Of a stretch of 64,000 nt of DNA, positions 15,001-21,000 are shown in pieces (position 1 is the first letter of the stretch; every line of letters starts with the position of its first letter). This DNA comes from Candidatus Poribacteria bacterium (GTDB taxonomy: Bacteria > Poribacteria > WGA-4E > PCPOR2b), in the NCBI GenBank assembly GCA_965116925.1, contig OZ220744.1, positions 2,464,001-2,528,000 on the forward strand, given 5' to 3'. Position numbers: made by a program.

Positions 15001-18000
15001 CCTAGCCGCCCCATCGCCGTTTGTACTTCGTCGAGGATGAGCACTAGATTGTGTTTGTCACAGAGCTCGCGCAGCCCTTCGATGTAACCGCTACTCGGTG
15101 TGTTGACCCCTCCTTCGGACTGGATTGTTTCCACAAGGATACCGCAGGTCTTTTCACTGATTACAGCTTCCACAGCCGGGAGGTCATCATACGGAACGTA
15201 AACAAATCCGGGAACCATCGGCTCAAAACCTTTGTGATATTTGGGTTGAGCGGTTGCCGTTATCGTTGCCATTGTGCGCCCATGGAACGAGTTGTCCATT
15301 GTGATGATTTTGTACGCGTCTCTGCCTTGGTCTCTGGTGAACTTCCGTGCGAGTTTAATCCCTGCTTCGTTGGCTTCGGCACCACTGTTGCAGAAGAAGC
15401 ACTGATCCATATCAGAGTTATCAATGAGCAATTTCGCCAACTGTGCTTGCGGTTCAATATAGTAGAGATTAGAGACGTGCAGGAGTTTTCCTGCTTGCTC
15501 ACGGATGGCTGCGACGACGTTGGGATGGCAATGCCCCAACCCGTTGACGGCTAGACCGCCTAGAAAATCGAGGTACTTTTTCCCCTCCGCATCCCAAAGG
15601 TAAGCACCTTCTCCACGGACGAACGCCAGTGAGCGTTCACCGTAGGTGTTCATAATATACTCTGTAGCCATTGCTTTAATTTCAGCAGTTGTCATTTTGT
15701 ATTCTCCTTTTGGGGGCTCGCGTGTGTCTACCGACCCATCGACCCCTTGACTGCCTTGCGGCAATCGGTTGCGTAGTGTAAAGATTCAATGATGCAGCGC
15801 ATATCCACCCACCCTTACAAATTTTTCTTCTATTTAAGAATGAGACCCCCACGTGAAAGTAAGTTTAATAGGTTGATATAGCACCAAATATTATAAGGGA
15901 AACGTGGCTGATATTCAAGATCAAAGTCATCAAGAACAGGAAAATTCTGAGTATTCATTCAAACAAGTTAAGATGCGTGTTATTTCTGATGGCTTGTTTG
16001 CTGCTGGGGTTGGTAGCCGGGGCAGGTCAGCACAGGTAGGCGTGGATACCTCTGAAAATCAGCGTTGGAGTTTGAGAGCAGGCACATATAAAAACGGCTG
16101 CGATTGGCGTTTTCAATAGTTTTGACATGCTGACAGGTTTGACACAACCCGATTTCTATATGGCTCTTAGTTTTCATATCATTCAATTGGAATCTGTACC
16201 CTTTCTTCACCCAAAACGCTGGATAATACCTCTATAAGTTCATCAAGGTGGATATGTCGAAAAAACTCAGAAAGCCGTTTCTGCTTCGGTTTAGTTGGTA
16301 GAAGGATGAAATCCTGATGATGCTTTTGGACTCGTTCTAAAACCTTGCGATAGGCGTGGCTTGTAGCATAGCCGACAATCAGTTCATAGTGTGCTTTATG
16401 GCGATCAAGATAGGCGTTGAACCGATCTGCACCGAGTTGAATCTGAGCAGCGTTTCGAGGTAGCAGTTGAAAATCGTAACGGACCACTGCCTCTTTTGAT
16501 TCAAATTCTTCGGGGACGGGACCATAGAGTCCCGAAAGGGTAATTTTGTGGATGAACCGCTGGCCTTTGCCGAATGCGGTGTGGAGTTTCGTTTTTACAA
16601 TGGAATGGGTGCGCGACAGAGAATACGGCTTCTTGCCAGCACAGGGGATTGTCAAAAGAATCCGCTTCTCTGTAGGCGGCTGGTAATTCGGCGGGATTGA
16701 AAATGAGTCGGGGGTGTAGTTCAGCGAGAGGGCTTGTTTCGTCGGTTGAGTTGTTAAACGTTTGGGGACGGGGACAACGCTTTTTGACATCTTCGATGCA
16801 AATTCCTCCCTGTTTTCAATCAACCAGCTGACTGCATCTCGAACGCCACGTGCTTTTGAGGCGTGACGGACGAGTGCTTCAAGTGAATCACCGGCTTTTA
16901 TCGCTTGCACCATGTTGTCAAGGGTTGCGGCCTCCATCTCGAAATTGTGAAGCGCGATTTTAGCGTAGTAGTAGCTTTTATATTGTCCTGTCGAAGTGCG
17001 TCGATAACTTTTTGGCTCCATGAATGCTTGTTGCATCTCTTCAAGGCAGGTTTCTCGGCAAATACGACAGGTGCATTCCATCGAATCTAATTCTAAGATC
17101 TTGAGTTTCTTTCCTGTCTCCGGATGTGAATAGCTGAGGCTACGCGCTGCTTGAATGTAACTTGTGCTGTCAAAACTATCTACCCCCAAATATGCGAGTA
17201 TGGGAGTCAAGTTACCGGAGACTCCGAAGGCGTGGATGGGAGTCCGATCTCGTGCGGATTCAGGGATGGCGTCAAGGACACCGCATATCCGTGATAGCAC
17301 TTCTGAATCGTTATCGCCCCGTAGGGGTACGAGCGAGCCGACCGCAAGTCCGAAGGGAAGTCGCCCCGGCAACCGTTCAAAAACTTGCGTCACGTAGTTC
17401 TGAATATCTTCTCTGGATTGTCCGTGGCAGCAGATATACAGGTAAGGTGGGTTTTCCATCTCTGCAAGCCGCGCCGCGACTCGAAATGCGTTCTGAAGAC
17501 TCCGCTTCATTCGGGTTTCTGCTTCTGAACGGACGAGACCGGGAGGTAGTGGATAATCTAAGGATGCGATGATGTCTCCACCGAGACTAAGTTGAAAATC
17601 CAGGATATCATCCGCTTCTGTTTCCTTGTGAATACCGTATTCCGAGAGGGAGAGTCCAGCGTTGTAAAGCAGTTTGAAGCCGCCTGAATCCAGAAACATG
17701 GGAGCATCATAGGGGCCGTTGGGTTCCCGGTAGCGTTCACGCATCGGTTTTTCTCGCCAGTAGCCGATGTGCTTGCCTCTGAGGTTAAAATCGAGGAAAT
17801 GCAATACCTGCGAGAGGATTGGCACGTTGTATTTCATAACGTCTTTCAGCAGGTATTTCCATATCCCACCCCCATTTGTGCTCGTGCTCGTCATGAATGA
17901 AAGGACGGGAAATAAAATTGGTGTTGATAGTGGTGGGAGTGTTACGCCGTCGCGCTGTAGATAAAGTTTTCCAATCCTGCCAGCGTTCCGCTGGATTGTT

Positions 18001-21000
18001 GTCTGATAAACTGACGTGTCGGTCATTTTAGTCTGCCTCTAAACGAGCCGCTTACCACTCGTTTCCTTCCGATTCACGCAGCTGAACTTCAACTATCGCA
18101 CCTCTGGTGCTTTAGGTGGAGTGCTGCCAACGCATTCCCAACTGAAATAGGGAAGGATATGATATAGTAGGTTGGACATGCCGCTCCTCATGAAGATTAA
18201 TTTATTAATTGGGTAATTTCCGAGCGATGTCCGGTGCGGGGGGAAACCGCACCTACCGGGTCTGGGGAAATATAGAATTACCCGTTTAATTTCTTAAAAC
18301 CCATCTGGAGCGCAGGCAGCCGTCAATCCCTTTCTATAGACATATCACTCCTCTGGAGCGAAAATATTTGTCATTTTGTGGATAGGTCTCACTATTGGTG
18401 TTTAGTTGGTAACTTGGATTATGATATGAGATACCCTATTCTGTCAAGCATTTTAGTCACGCTATGTAACCAAATCAAAAAGGGTGGAGGTATATACTGC
18501 CCACACTTAGAAAATTGGATTTGGCGTTGAAAAATAGGTGTTGATGTGAGATAATGGATATCCTTGCGGTATAGTTAGGACAGGCGATCGGGATGGAACC
18601 GTTCCTTGCCTACCCATTTCTTTCTTTAGGAGTTGAACGATGGCAGCCCCAAACTTATCAGAAAATATAGTCTCTATAAAAGCGACAGAGATTTCATCTC
18701 CACCGGCGTGGGCACTGATGGAGCGTCAACTTATCCGCCTTATGGAGAAGGCGGTGGATTTGGCGGCGCAGAAGTATGGTCGTCTTGATGGAACCCCCTA
18801 TAATGTGAACGATGTTGATGATACATACGAGGCGCATTCATATAAGGGACTCCTCTACGCTATCGGTGCGGAGGAGAGGGTGCTGGAGATTGGTCTCCAA
18901 GAGTGGAATGCGATTACCCGACTTTATGATGATGGCGTTGCGCGTCGAGATGAGGAACCGCAACATCCAGAGTTTCGGGTGCAACTTCACAATGAATACT
19001 ACAACCTGAACGGTCCCGCAGACTGGTTTCACATGGGCGAAGGGAATCAGTCTTTTTATTCCTTTGGACTGGCAGATCCCACCCACCCGGAAAATATCCG
19101 GCGCGCCAAACGGTTCGCAGCGATGTATATGGCTGAGGATCTCGAAGCCCCCAACTATGACCCTGAGTATAGAATTATTCGCTCACCTTTCCACGGAAGT
19201 GTTGGTCCCCGTTTTCATGCGGACCTTGCGATGGCAAAGGTGCTGTTGGATCCGATTTACTATCCGGGCGGTGTTGCCCATGGACACGCTCAACGGTCAA
19301 ACCTCTATCCGGTGGTTAAGGATTTGGAGGAGGACTGGTTTGAGAACCCGGAGCGGGCAGAAAAGATTCTAAAGATTTTCGATGATGTTGTTCTTAACGG
19401 CGATATTCCAGACAATTTAGCGGCGACGGCACTGATGACGAATGCGTATCTTTATACCGGCGAGGAGAAATATAAGCGGTGGGTGCTGGAATACACGGAA
19501 GCGTGGATGGATCGGACGCGGGATAATGATGGGATTATTCCTGATAACGTCGGACCCACGGGGAAGGTAGGGGAACAGCGCAACGGTCAATGGTGGGGCG
19601 GATTTTACGGGTGGAACAGTCGCAACTCTGCCCGCAATGCGTTTTTGGCAGCGACCATCGCCTCCGAATGTGCGTTGTTGCTCACCGGCGATTTCGGCTA
19701 TCTGGAGTTCATCCGTTCACAGATTGAATTTCTGTTGAGCCTTGCTAAGACGCGGGAAGATGGTCAGTTACTTGTGCCGACGCGGATCACGCAAAATGGT
19801 TGGGAGGGATATCAGCCGAGAGGAATTCAGTGGTTGGCACGGGTGTACCATGCCTCGATGGAGGTAAGGGATTATGAGTTGATTACAAGGCTGCGTGCCG
19901 GTGAGAGGGAAAGCGATTGGAATGAAGTCGAGGTTGCAGGTGACCGGAGCGGTGGGAATCTGGAAGCACGCTTTAACTACTACGACGGTGTAAACCCCGA
20001 TTGGCCCGAAAAACGGTTACAGACGGAGTATCAGTATGTCTTGGGGATGTATGAGTTTATGCGTCATGATTCACGTGATATCGCGCAGATTATTGCTGAG
20101 AACCGGTGGCCCCCCAACCCTGTCGTCACTAAGGGGCTTACGCAGGTCACGATGGGGTCGCCGCAGCCTATCTACAACGGTGGATTGTTACGCGCAACGG
20201 TACGTTATTTCGATATGGACAGTGCTCGTCCCGGGCTTCCGAAAGATGTCGCTGCGCTAGTTGATAAATTGGAAGCTAATCGGGTGGGCATCCACCTTGT
20301 GAACCTCAGTCGAACTGAAACTCGGAATGTGATTGTGCAGGCGGGTGCTTTTGGAGAACATCAATTCACTCAAGTCCAGTTTCGGACGGTTGAGCAAGAA
20401 GGGGTGTCGGAGAGGACGATTCCTGTTGATAGTAAGTATTTCGTAGTCGAACTGCCTCCCTCCACGAGTATTCGACTAGAGGGAGGGATGGGACGTTTTG
20501 TGAATCAACCGAGCTATGCTTTTCCTTGGCATGGCGACAGGGTGCCGGTGCCGTTTTAGTCCGAAATCGTTTATAAAATAACGCAAGCTGCTACACACAT
20601 TGCGCTTTTCTGGAGCGCAGAGATTTGGCGTATCATTCTATAAACATATCGCTCCTCTGGAGTGAAAGACAGCGACTCAACGGGTGAGGAAACTCCACTC
20701 CTACAGGAAAACTAATAGATTTTCAACGCCTAGCAACTTGGGTTAAAGTTGCCTTTTGCAAAGTTGTACCACCTATCCATGTATACTCAAAGAGGAGATG
20801 GTATGGAAAGACAGACTGCTATAAGTATTATTGATGATGCGTTTTATATCAACGGGAAGATCACCTATCCCGGTCGATTTTATAATGGACATAAGGTTGA
20901 AGGATTGCTCCTCAATTCGCGGATGGTGCAGGGGGTGTTCGACGATCGGAATCCCGAAACTGTCGGTATGTGGGCATATCCTGATACCGGCGAATGGGAT

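Follow-up and report, generated by a model that had tools for sequence, protein, structure and literature searches.

A TGT domain fused to an ArcS-type C1 domain in Candidatus Poribacteria, a possible one-protein writer of archaeosine-type marks in DNA

The DNA analyzed here (the window; 64,000 nucleotides of contig OZ220744.1) belongs to Candidatus Poribacteria, a sponge-symbiont bacterium. It carries a TGT-C1 fusion gene whose product is termed P0001 (Table 1). This gene is the single long open reading frame at its position, starts with ATG and encodes 615 amino acids; the reading frame proposed in the initial annotation is confirmed, and its strand, not given there, is minus. The GC content of the gene (48.9%) is close to that of the genome (49.2%), and both halves are under purifying selection, with a median dN/dS of 0.10 over 55 ortholog pairs (TGT half, 0.094; C1 half, 0.112). 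Its neighbors in the window are housekeeping genes (argD, cyclophilin, rsgA and pth), and neither adjoining dpd-type genes nor Dpd restriction genes were found in the window, as had been noted before for the immediate flanks. Directly upstream lies the remnant of a QueD/PTPS-like gene, identical at 16 of 21 residues (tblastn, E 1e-6) to the protein encoded upstream of the fusion gene at the related locus L004, which is a PF01242 PTPS (E 2.2e-15). In sister genomes this QueD/PTPS-like gene ends 1 nt before the start of the fusion gene, and it is intact in one of them (G050). In addition, a KamA-family lysine aminomutase-like radical SAM gene is located three genes downstream; this linkage is seen only at the loci of close clade-1 relatives (cluster c12, 11 loci) and is ordinary synteny.

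Table 1. Positions of the fusion gene, its domains and the adjacent features in the window
Feature	Coordinates	Strand	Basis
TGT-C1 fusion gene (P0001)	16179..18026	-	Sole long ORF; Pfam TGT + DUF5591; AF2; dN/dS
TGT (base-exchange) TIM-barrel domain, residues ~5-415	16782..18014	-	Family profile vs 1iq8; Foldseek
ArcS-type C1 domain (DUF5591), residues ~446-608	16203..16691	-	Pfam; domain model; 2q07 match
ArcS signature PC-X3-KPY-X2-S-X2-H (PCAGKKPYSLSRTH, residues 461-474)	16605..16646	-	Sequence position; motif wording from papers
Cys-rich ORF, 65 aa (CxxC...C...C)	15980..16177	-	ATG 1 nt past TGT-C1 stop codon (TGAtATG)
QueD/PTPS-like remnant	18031..18093	-	Last 21 codons, in-frame stop; tblastn with L004 PTPS

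Two Pfam domains score above cut-off in P0001, namely TGT (residues 106-387, E 1.8e-16, 60.6 bits) and DUF5591 (residues 447-574, E 9.1e-14, 52 bits), and the whole protein was modeled by AF2 with a pLDDT of 93.2 and a pTM of 0.91. The TGT half is closest to archaeal ArcTGT (TgtA, tRNA-guanine(15) transglycosylase): the Pyrococcus horikoshii structure 1iq8 is the best Foldseek match and is matched by the family profile over profile positions 5-415 (E 7.7e-35, 123.8 bits), whereas the solved DpdA 7ui4 reaches 20 bits (E 0.0019) against the same profile. The residues D113, D157, H201-G202, G230-S231-L232-V233 and D286 are present, a zinc site is formed by C318/C320/C323/H360, and the motifs DSGGF, CTCRIC and LHNF begin at positions 113, 318 and 359, so that the TGT catalytic machinery is complete. 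By comparison, the two haloarchaeal ArcS rows of the family alignment lack the equivalents of Asp157 and His265, a difference that depends on the alignment. The three catalytic or binding aspartates, the CxCx2C...H zinc site and an equivalent of Val198 in the preQ0 pocket are common to P0001 and ArcTGT; V233 aligns with this P. horikoshii valine, which is described as keeping out preQ1 (PMC10164549).

The C-terminal half corresponds to the C1 domain of the ArcS alpha subunit. Its domain model (pLDDT 85.9) has one clear structural match, AF0587 (2q07; Foldseek E 7.5e-7), and the VIA comparison with 2q07 gave Z 15.2 and an rmsd of 2.5 Å over 136 residues, the next match having Z 8.1. The ArcS motif, printed in PMC10516641 and PMC5699537, is intact in P0001 as PCAGKKPYSLSRTH. 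Nothing follows C1, because the protein ends about 7 residues past the last helix; no C2, PUA or other domain was found there by Pfam or in the AF2 model, and the scan of 15 further family members found no C2 or PUA either. ArcTGT, in contrast, carries a C-terminal C1-C2-PUA tRNA-binding array. These results bear out the anatomy drawn in the initial annotation, which had reported the fusion, the archaeal affinity of its TGT half, the lack of a PUA domain and the DSGGF, CTCRIC and C1 motifs.

Conservation was counted in an alignment of 61 fused-family rows, 12 short stand-alone relatives and 7 tRNA-type TGTs. D113, D157 and D286 are invariant in the fused rows (61/61), the zinc Cys/His site is kept in 60-61 and V233 in 60 of them, while the ArcS motif retains C462 in 58, K466 in 59, P467/Y468 in 61 and H474 in 48 rows. 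The base-binding position 201 holds histidine in all but one of the 61 fused rows and in all 12 stand-alone relatives, in contrast to glutamine in 7/7 tRNA-type TGTs (Gln169 in ArcTGT). His201 probably corresponds to His181 of the His181-Gly182 base-binding site named for the S. Montevideo DpdA (PMC10164549), a correspondence judged from the register of the HMM alignment and not residue by residue.

P0001 is neither ArcTGT nor ArcS and belongs to a separate fused family. Assignment to either enzyme proper was rejected since the scores fall far under both NCBIfam cut-offs (TgtA, 93.2 bits vs 350; ArcS NF040592, 92.1 bits vs 440); the sole NCBIfam model passed is tgt_general (60.4 bits, cut-off 47.6), and DpdA scores 19 bits. 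In all, 444 relatives were found at E<=1e-5 (442 had been counted before at E<=1e-10), and the best 120 of the 444 all combine PF01702 with PF17884. The fused family, defined as 101 clusters at E<=1e-30, is distributed patchily over Poribacteria, cyanobacteria, Chloroflexota, one Symbiobacteriaceae genome and haloarchaea, where L082 and two PLSDB records are plasmids; phage records gave no match to P0001 at E<=1e-3. DUF5591 occurs in 58 of 176 Poribacteria genomes and is missing from 118; its presence in the phylum was annotated correctly, with a count of 50/175. Within the genus, the fusion gene is found in 15 of 19 genomes and is cleanly deleted in the other 4, hence it is accessory and dispensable there. 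In a TGT-domain tree that was built by a quick search, with SH-aLRT as its sole support measure, the fused family forms a clade separate from ArcTGT, and the seven poribacterial rows form one clade (SH-aLRT 95) of three sub-clades, nested in a 32-row clade (SH-aLRT 99) with cyanobacterial and Chloroflexota island genes. Three haloarchaeal genomes hold canonical ArcTGT and ArcS and carry the fused family as an extra gene.

Outside Poribacteria, the family gene sits in Dpd-like, anti-phage DNA-marking islands. Of 27 such loci, 25 have flanks, and in all 25 the gene lies among defense or 7-deazaguanine genes: a DpdJ-like helicase or its remnant in 12 (PADLOC DpdJ, 186-214 bits for the four bacterial helicases tested), NsnA-like GmrSD_N plus HEPN in 9-10, QueC/D/E or a Vut_1/YhhQ-type transporter in 8 and a DpdK-like PLD nuclease in 5. 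DpdH-like ATPases also occur beside relatives, one family gene adjoins DISARM DrmA/B (L067) and another NurA+HerA (L071). In Poribacteria, a QueD-like gene stands directly 5' of the family gene in 8 loci, and a second paralog clade has an N6/N4 DNA methylase directly 5' in 15 loci and a MutH-like nuclease in 6. The relatives thus adjoin YprA-family helicases, PLD proteins, ATPases and preQ0 genes resembling those of the Dpd system (writers DpdA/B/C, restriction proteins DpdD-K). Unlike in that system, DpdB was not seen at the relatives' loci, nor was a clear DpdC beyond a DUF6884 protein with a weak PADLOC DpdC match (L078, E about 2e-4). The ArcS-C1 domain takes the place of DpdC, which predicts an amidine and not the amide dADG. 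A Dpd-like system named BRIGADE, which combines PLD and YprA helicases with a cluster of 7-deazaguanine genes, has been described from halophilic archaea only, and the words TGT, transglycosylase and DUF5591 do not appear in the main text of that preprint (bioRxiv 10.1101/2025.09.15.676423).

In the genome studied here, the fusion gene is an orphan. A tblastn search of the genome at E<1e-5 found no DpdJ-like helicase, PLD, NsnA-like, HEPN, DUF6884, DpdH-like or YhhQ protein, and RaSEA was looked for in the genome and not found. The preQ0-pathway genes QueD, QueF and QueC are present together with a second, ordinary bacterial Tgt (556.9 bits), as annotated before, and so is QueE. ArcS of Thermococcus kodakarensis is reported to be inactive without RaSEA, to yield preQ0-Lys and to need RaSEA for G+ (PMC11298593), so the predicted activity of C1 is not assured here.

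We propose, at a probability of about one half, that P0001 is a one-protein writer which would insert preQ0 into DNA and then turn this base into an amidine, for instance dG+. The N-terminal TGT domain would excise guanine from nucleic acid by an Asp nucleophile and an Asp acid/base and insert preQ0 supplied by the QueD/E/C pathway of the cell itself. The ArcS-C1 domain would then couple the 7-cyano group of this base with an amine, either ammonia or an amino acid (lysine, for example), and so produce an archaeosine-type amidine. The domain architecture, the intact catalytic residues, the purifying selection, the genomic settings of the family and the lack of partners in this genome are observed directly, while we infer that the substrate is DNA, that preQ0 is inserted and that the product is an amidine. 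DNA is more likely the target than tRNA because relatives in other lineages are found within anti-phage DNA-marking islands; His201 as in DpdA, the coexistence with ArcTGT and ArcS in haloarchaea, the nesting with island genes in the tree, the QueD-like and DNA methylase neighbors and the accessory presence also speak for it. A chemical precedent is the C1-only ArcS2 of Vibrio phage nt-1, which with DpdA2 is reported to introduce dG+ into plasmid DNA in E. coli (PMC10516641, Table 3). This pair and that of Sulfolobus virus STSV-2 likewise join a DNA transglycosylase to a C1-only ArcS, but as two proteins, whereas the fused family is one polypeptide on cellular chromosomes and plasmids, and known DpdA is not close to the TGT half of P0001. 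Counting against DNA are the much greater sequence similarity of the TGT domain to the tRNA enzyme ArcTGT than to the only DpdA of solved structure, the restriction partners missing from the genome and the lack of a matching phage record. With such partners not found and housekeeping neighbors in the window, the DNA reading leans on the relatives. The whole family may act as the modifying component within Dpd-like restriction-modification islands, from which the poribacterial genes would descend as orphan writers kept without helicase and nuclease, similar to an orphan methyltransferase and leaving a dG+-like mark on the chromosome.

It is somewhat unlikely that the target in Poribacteria is tRNA, at guanine 15 or another position, with inserted preQ0 becoming an archaeosine-like base; this would place an archaeal kind of tRNA modification in a bacterium, possibly in descent from a DNA-marking ancestor. 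The closeness to ArcTGT in sequence and fold and the fit of V233 to the preQ0 pocket (PMC10164549) agree with it, and a lone gene among housekeeping genes, inherited as one clade of three sub-clades within the phylum under strong purifying selection, would suit a domesticated cellular function. C1 need not be bound to one polymer either, given that ArcS is reported to act on preQ0 even in nucleoside form (PMC11298593). The initial annotation had read the protein as a one-protein ArcTGT/ArcS acting on position 15 of tRNA or on DNA; its anatomy stands, and the DNA branch is the better supported. Archaeosine at position 15 is not favored because both NCBIfam cut-offs are failed, C2 and PUA are lacking throughout the members scanned, haloarchaea hold the gene besides ArcTGT and ArcS, all 25 flanked loci outside Poribacteria show defense or 7-deazaguanine contexts, RaSEA is absent and the gene is dispensable in its genus and missing from most of the phylum. 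His201 in place of glutamine and the DNA methylase preceding the second paralog clade argue in the same direction. Nor is G+ any longer "archaea-only", as had been supposed, since dG+ is known from phage DNA (PMC5699537, PMC10516641).

A DNA substrate with different chemistry is quite improbable. C1 might stop at an adduct with lysine or another amino acid, hydrate the nitrile to an amide (dADG, as DpdC) or serve as a mere nucleic-acid-binding module, the end product not being G+. The preQ0-Lys product of T. kodakarensis ArcS would fit a genome lacking RaSEA; the DNA of nt-1 contains dADG besides dPreQ0 and dG+, and the phage ArcS was considered by the authors of that study as a possible amidohydrolase (PMC6884629). 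Moreover, 13/61 family rows have another residue in place of the final His of the motif and 3/61 in place of the Cys, so different members may differ in their chemistry, and the KamA-like gene downstream could be cited as well. However, the motif of P0001 is complete, nt-1 ArcS2 is reported to yield dG+ in E. coli although no dedicated RaSEA accompanied it (PMC10516641), and the KamA-like linkage is confined to one group of related loci. Transfer of a 7-deazaguanine onto small molecules or proteins, which has been proposed for the TGT-like members of some signaling defense systems, or a role in a deazapurine natural-product pathway is scarcely credible. A weak match to the solved Cap10 chain 9ntn (protein E 0.017; family profile E 2.5e-5 over about 50 positions) speaks for it, but this match is short and falls far below the ArcTGT matches, all nucleotide-handling TGT residues are retained, neither a cyclase nor a QueC-like Cap9 nor a biosynthetic cluster was found nearby, and ArcS C1 is described only with nucleic-acid-bound or nucleoside preQ0 (PMC11298593).

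The small Cys-rich ORF behind the fusion gene had zero matches in Pfam, NCBIfam and PADLOC. It is kept in 10/10 closest loci (L004-L013), and it does not depend on the fusion gene, because the four same-genus genomes without that gene still hold it.

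TGT-C1 is very likely a 7-deazaguanine transglycosylase with an attached domain that modifies the preQ0 nitrile, as its domains and residues suggest, and DNA is the substrate to which a probability of about 50% can be given. Pfam assigns residues 106-387 to TGT (E 1.8e-16) and residues 447-574 to DUF5591 (E 9.1e-14). Among the NCBIfam models, only the superfamily model tgt_general exceeded its cut-off (60.4 vs 47.6 bits). The whole-protein scores failed for ArcTGT (TgtA, TIGR00432; 93.2 bits with a cut-off of 350, a true TgtA, P0268, reaching 521 bits) as well as for ArcS (NF040592; 92.1 bits, cut-off 440), and bacterial Tgt gave 22 bits. 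Membership of DpdA also failed by sequence, with 19.2 bits on NF041059 (cut-off 200), 20 bits for the family profile against the solved DpdA 7ui4, and E 1.5e-4 for DpdA in PADLOC-DB v2, which holds no model for the fused family and gave only this DpdA match. According to Pfam and the AlphaFold2 model, nothing other than DUF5591 follows the barrel before the end at residue 615, so that TGT-C1 has neither the C1-C2-PUA array by which ArcTGT binds tRNA nor the four-domain layout of ArcS (Nt, C1, C2, PUA). The initial annotation had likewise found no PUA domain here, and neither PUA nor another extra domain was found in 15 further family members scanned, some of them 700-880 aa long. The motifs that it quoted are all located in TGT-C1 where it placed them, and the ArcS motif that it named is printed as PC-X3-KPY-X2-S-X2-H in PMC10516641 and PMC5699537 and is matched exactly by PCAGKKPYSLSRTH at residues 461-474. 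The ordinary bacterial Tgt that it described is confirmed with 557 bits as the second of two TGT genes in the genome, which contains one DUF5591 gene. GC content is 48.9% for the TGT-C1 gene compared with 49.2% for the genome, a single contig of 6.47 Mb that is 99% complete.

The AlphaFold2 model, computed from a 40-sequence family alignment, is confident (pLDDT 93.2, pTM 0.91) and has two domains, namely a TIM barrel with zinc sub-domain (residues ~5-415) and an alpha/beta domain (~446-608), joined by a short linker of lower confidence. Foldseek with the whole model gave P. horikoshii ArcTGT as top solved match (E 1.3e-20), and the family profile scored 123.8 bits against this enzyme, ~40-50 against bacterial and eukaryotic TGTs. 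The C-terminal domain modelled alone (pLDDT 85.9) has AF0587 (2q07) as its sole clear structural relative, with a Foldseek E of 7.5e-7 and nothing else at <=0.001; in VIA this pair reached Z 15.2 with an rmsd of 2.5 A over 136 residues, the runner-up having Z 8.1.

Residue conservation was followed in a 90-sequence alignment, 61 rows of which are full-length members of the fused family. D113 (general acid/base), D157 (base-binding) and D286 (nucleophile) are present in 61/61 fused rows, and the Zn ligands, C318/C320/C323/H360 in TGT-C1, are kept in 60-61 of them. By hand count on a pairwise alignment, the counterparts in the P. horikoshii structure 1iq8 are Asp95, Asp130, Asp249 and Cys279/281/284, the pairing of D113 with Asp95 being set by eye where the printed alignment is ~8 residues out of register. 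V233 (60/61) pairs with P. horikoshii Val198, the side chain of which excludes preQ1 according to the available part of PMC10164549. Conservation in the C1 motif is 58/61 for Cys, 59/61 for Lys, 61/61 for Pro-Tyr and 48/61 for the final His; TGT-C1 has all of these residues. The two haloarchaeal ArcS rows lack equivalents of D157 and H265 (alignment-dependent), which argues that the TGT half of TGT-C1 is not a degenerate ArcS N-terminal domain. Median dN/dS was 0.10 in 55 pairs from 11 orthologs of the closest clade, with 0.094 for the TGT half and 0.112 for the C1 half, indicating that both halves are maintained by selection.

By the alignment, residue 201 separates the fused family from the tRNA enzymes: it is His in 60/61 fused rows and in 12/12 short stand-alone relatives, compared with Gln in 7/7 tRNA-type TGTs aligned (4 ArcTGT, 3 bacterial). 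H201-G202 is nearly invariant across the fused family. The base-reading residues of DpdA from S. Montevideo, a DNA enzyme, are Asp130 and His181(-Gly182) in the available part of PMC10164549. H201 may correspond to this His181, a suggestive match made through the register of an HMM alignment only (residues 168-294 vs profile 147-263).

An exhaustive search of cluster representatives with TGT-C1 gave 616 proteins at E<=0.001; at E<=1e-30 there were 101, and many of these are ~600-700 aa long and 32-48% identical over the entire query. In a scan with one genome per species 125 relatives were found, and the analysis kept the best 80 loci. These 80 comprise 53 loci in Poribacteria or Poribacteria-like MAGs, 11 in Cyanobacteria (Nostoc, Microseira, Planktothrix, Spirulina, Microcoleus), 10 in Chloroflexota (including Thermogemmatispora carboxidivorans PM5), 1 in Symbiobacteriaceae and 5 in Haloarchaea, one of the latter on a Halorubrum plasmid. 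Further full-length copies were found in PLSDB on plasmids of Natrinema and Haladaptatus. The records carry names such as 'tRNA-guanine transglycosylase' and '7-cyano-7-deazaguanine tRNA-ribosyltransferase'. In a TGT-domain tree from a quick search (SH-aLRT support only, rooted with bacterial Tgt), the fused family and short stand-alone TGTs are separate from ArcTGT and ArcS; there is a single clade for the 7 poribacterial rows (support 95), and it lies inside a clade of 32 rows (support 99) that also contains cyanobacterial and Chloroflexota genes. A phage collection gave no tblastn match to the TGT-C1 protein at E<=1e-3 and one marginal Sulfolobus virus match (E 9e-4) to a haloarchaeal 419-aa stand-alone TGT; it provided no connection to any DpdA that has been studied by experiment. 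In three relatives (L053:7977-9925, L068:7884-9903, L074:7983-9864) the gene lies in two ORFs; frameshifts or stop codons, or else errors of assembly, may be the cause. Two paralogs, with ~89% and ~65% identity to the query, lie distant from each other on one contig in the poribacterial locus pairs L004/L019, L005/L026 and L011/L020, and five genomes of the phylum have two DUF5591 matches each.

Outside Poribacteria, members of the family are found in defence islands. Neighbourhoods were described with ORFs called by simple rules, BLAST clusters at fixed thresholds, Pfam and PADLOC annotation and a BLAST tally; among the best 80 of 125 relatives, 25 of 27 non-poribacterial loci have flanks. 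A DEAD/Helicase_C(+MZB) helicase of 1150-1575 aa adjoins the gene in 12/25 loci, counting a remnant in L066 and contig-end fragments. The four bacterial helicases scanned matched PADLOC DpdJ with 186-214 bits, and the one haloarchaeal helicase scanned had DruE as top score and DpdJ lower. A small PLD nuclease occurs in 5/25 loci, with a DpdK match for both of those scanned with PADLOC and a weak Pfam PLDc_2 match for three. An NsnA/PD-T4-2_A-like GmrSD_N protein followed by a HEPN protein is found in nine to ten of the 25 loci, i.e., in every cyanobacterial locus with a downstream flank and in L077. Genes for QueC/QueD/QueE or Vut_1 (a YhhQ-type precursor transporter) are present in 8/25, and three haloarchaeal loci also have a DUF6884 protein, a 419-aa stand-alone TGT and a GHKL ATPase. 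Neighbours seen in single loci are DISARM DrmA/DrmB (L067), NurA and HerA (L071), PDC-M02 (L070) and an integrase (L079). The RefSeq annotation of a Haladaptatus plasmid gives a similar island picture, with two fused copies. Three haloarchaeal genomes contain canonical ArcTGT (286-292 bits, Pfam TGT) and canonical ArcS besides the fused family, which therefore cannot be the tRNA archaeosine pathway in these haloarchaea. BRIGADE, a Dpd-like system of halophilic archaea, combines a 7-deazaguanine cluster with PLD nucleases and YprA-family helicases (bioRxiv 10.1101/2025.09.15.676423, available part). The haloarchaeal relatives of TGT-C1 probably belong to it.

Two side observations concern these loci. 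In a Microcoleus MAG (L066:16-2040), the TGT-C1 frame continues for ~250 residues, a stretch that shares 67% identity with the C-terminus of the L060 DpdJ-like helicase; a deletion appears to have taken most of the helicase, joining both genes. In the haloarchaeal loci L078:9976-11686, L079, L082 and L102, the gene immediately before a stand-alone TGT of 353-419 aa encodes a DUF6884 protein; this TGT is the closest outgroup to the fused family. DUF6884 has the motifs CxxxK and LSAxxG (PMC11701544). Similar motifs in TGT-C1 (PCxxxKPY, LSGLYG) raised the idea that ArcS-C1 is kin of DUF6884/YaaA/DpdC; the hhalign probability was only 2.6% and YaaA was absent from both C-domain structure searches, so that this kinship stays a mere lead.

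The poribacterial genes form three sub-clades, and no neighbour cluster is common to Poribacteria and other phyla (BLAST clusters, best 80 of 125 loci). Clade 1 comprises the TGT-C1 gene and ten loci (L004-L013) with 84-91% identity; in four of these (L004, L005, L007, L013) a PTPS/QueD-like gene of 128 aa stops 1 nt upstream of the start codon, fragments of it are left in L009 and L011, and it also occurs in L015 and L021. In clade 2 (~65% identity), an N6/N4 DNA methylase directly precedes the gene in 15 loci; a MutH-like nuclease occurs in 6 loci. Nucleoside 2-deoxyribosyltransferase-like genes lie 3.5-7 kb from 6 clade-2 loci, too distant and too weak to be counted. Clade 3 (~55% identity) has metabolic neighbours. 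The TGT-C1 gene is accessory, being found in 58/176 genomes of the phylum, 46/133 high-quality ones and 15/19 of the same genus. In the four same-genus genomes without it, the flanks are syntenic, the small Cys-rich ORF downstream is kept (73-82% identical) and QueD-like remnants lie beside it, which indicates that the gene was deleted there.

As the initial annotation had stated, preQ0 supply genes (QueC, QueF) are present in the genome and no dpd-type genes lie next to TGT-C1; QueD (in tandem) and QueE are present too. An island of the Dpd/BRIGADE type, in which the writer is accompanied by a YprA-family helicase, a PLD or other nuclease and 7-deazaguanine genes, is absent from both the window and the genome; tblastn at E<1e-5 found no DpdJ-like helicase, PLD, NsnA-like, HEPN, DUF6884, DpdH-like or YhhQ protein in it. 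TIGR01210, which we take to be RaSEA, the radical-SAM partner of ArcS (the control pattern fits), has no match in this 99%-complete genome; its cut-off was passed in 3 of 6 control genomes, presumably among the 3 euryarchaea. The QueE-like radical SAM gene at L103:767-2560 (G000:C1:3936566-3938359, outside the window) is a 598-aa ORF in which two QueE parts (~23-63 and 58-256 of a 260-aa QueE) stand ~1 kb apart with LAGLIDADG endonuclease matches between them, and looks like a QueE interrupted by an intein.

Several observations suggest DNA as the substrate of TGT-C1. The family lies in defence islands together with genes for preQ0 supply and import; haloarchaea have it in addition to ArcTGT and ArcS; a PUA domain is lacking; the position that reads the base is occupied by His; the poribacterial clade falls within a group of island genes; clade 2 has a DNA methylase and a nuclease as neighbours; and the gene is dispensable. 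There is also a precedent (PMC10516641), in that plasmid DNA of E. coli acquires dG+ from a C1-only ArcS2 with DpdA. A tRNA or other RNA substrate, which we consider less likely, would agree with a sequence that is clearly nearer to ArcTGT than to DpdA, with an orphan gene amid housekeeping genes, and with strong purifying selection in a vertically inherited clade. Outcomes other than these two take up the remaining probability. The product would follow from ArcS chemistry. In T. kodakarensis, ArcS uses lysine as donor and requires RaSEA, as the available part of PMC11298593 describes. Since RaSEA is absent here, three end products are conceivable for TGT-C1: G+/dG+ made from ammonia in a direct reaction, an amino-acid adduct, and the amide. 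Tentatively, the fused proteins might be single-polypeptide writers in a branch of 7-deazaguanine restriction-modification that is so far undescribed in bacteria and archaea, with deoxyarchaeosine or a related amidine as self mark in cellular chromosomes rather than in phage genomes; in Poribacteria, the restriction arm might have been lost and the writer still selected, giving a dG+-type base in the DNA of sponge symbionts.

To our knowledge, the 7-deazaguanine marks of cellular DNA known so far are dPreQ0 and dADG, written by DpdA/B/C. In DNA, dG+ is known from phages (PMC5699537 and PMC10516641, available parts). TGT-C1 is placed here with 7-deazaguanine nucleic-acid modification of the Dpd/BRIGADE type. 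No description of the TGT-ArcS(C1) fusion or its bacterial islands was found in the literature searched, and other papers or the supplements of the BRIGADE preprint may list it. This preprint is the nearest publication; its main text nowhere uses the terms TGT, transglycosylase or DUF5591 (bioRxiv 10.1101/2025.09.15.676423). If the DNA reading is true, a one-protein cellular writer that inserts and matures its base would bring a new self mark into bacterial and archaeal immunity, and a family labelled as tRNA-guanine transglycosylase in cultured cyanobacteria, Chloroflexota and haloarchaea would be explained. Such a compact enzyme could place a reactive 7-deazaguanine in nucleic acids, and Poribacteria would have an orphan modification of DNA or, less likely, tRNA.

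Features of the window around the TGT-C1 gene
Feature	Position (nt)	Strand	Remarks
WD40/leucine-rich repeat ORF	7426-11820	minus	1464 aa; WD40 beta-propellers, leucine-rich repeats and dockerin domains
KamA-family radical SAM gene	12740-13801	minus	three genes downstream of TGT-C1
Cys-rich ORF			65 aa; ATG 1 nt past the TGT-C1 stop codon; kept in all 10 closest loci
TGT-C1 gene	16179-18026	minus	single long ORF, ATG start, 615 aa
QueD-like remnant	18031-18093		last 21 codons, internal stop; 16/21 identical, E 1e-6
Repeat element	18176-18364		~75-190 nt; between QueD-like remnant and divergent upstream gene
639-aa gene, divergent	18640-20559	plus	no Pfam, NCBIfam or PADLOC family; sub-threshold BON_like match

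Pfam, NCBIfam and PADLOC assign the Cys-rich ORF to none of their families, and the Atlas gave only unnamed 61-64-aa clusters; because it persists in genomes from which the TGT-C1 gene was deleted, it is not counted as a partner. Further neighbours are argD, a cyclophilin gene and the KamA-family gene on one side and the 639-aa gene, rsgA and pth on the other. The KamA-family gene reaches 476 bits with the model for lysine 2,3-aminomutase AblA, short of its cut-off of 525, and was rejected as a substitute for RaSEA, its linkage being confined to closely related clade-1 loci. In metatranscriptome contigs (4 runs of one study), the TGT-C1 gene is partly covered at a word depth of ~3-5, compared with 23-40 for argD, and parts are uncovered; this weak coverage allows no firm statement on expression, as the contigs have no strand or transcript ends and DNA carry-over is possible. 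The repeat element shows a very high word depth of 150-1400 in these contigs, with 138 BLAST matches in the genome (38 of >=100 nt) and dozens in each same-genus genome. The 639-aa gene has paralog-like DNA matches of ~66% identity elsewhere in same-genus genomes.
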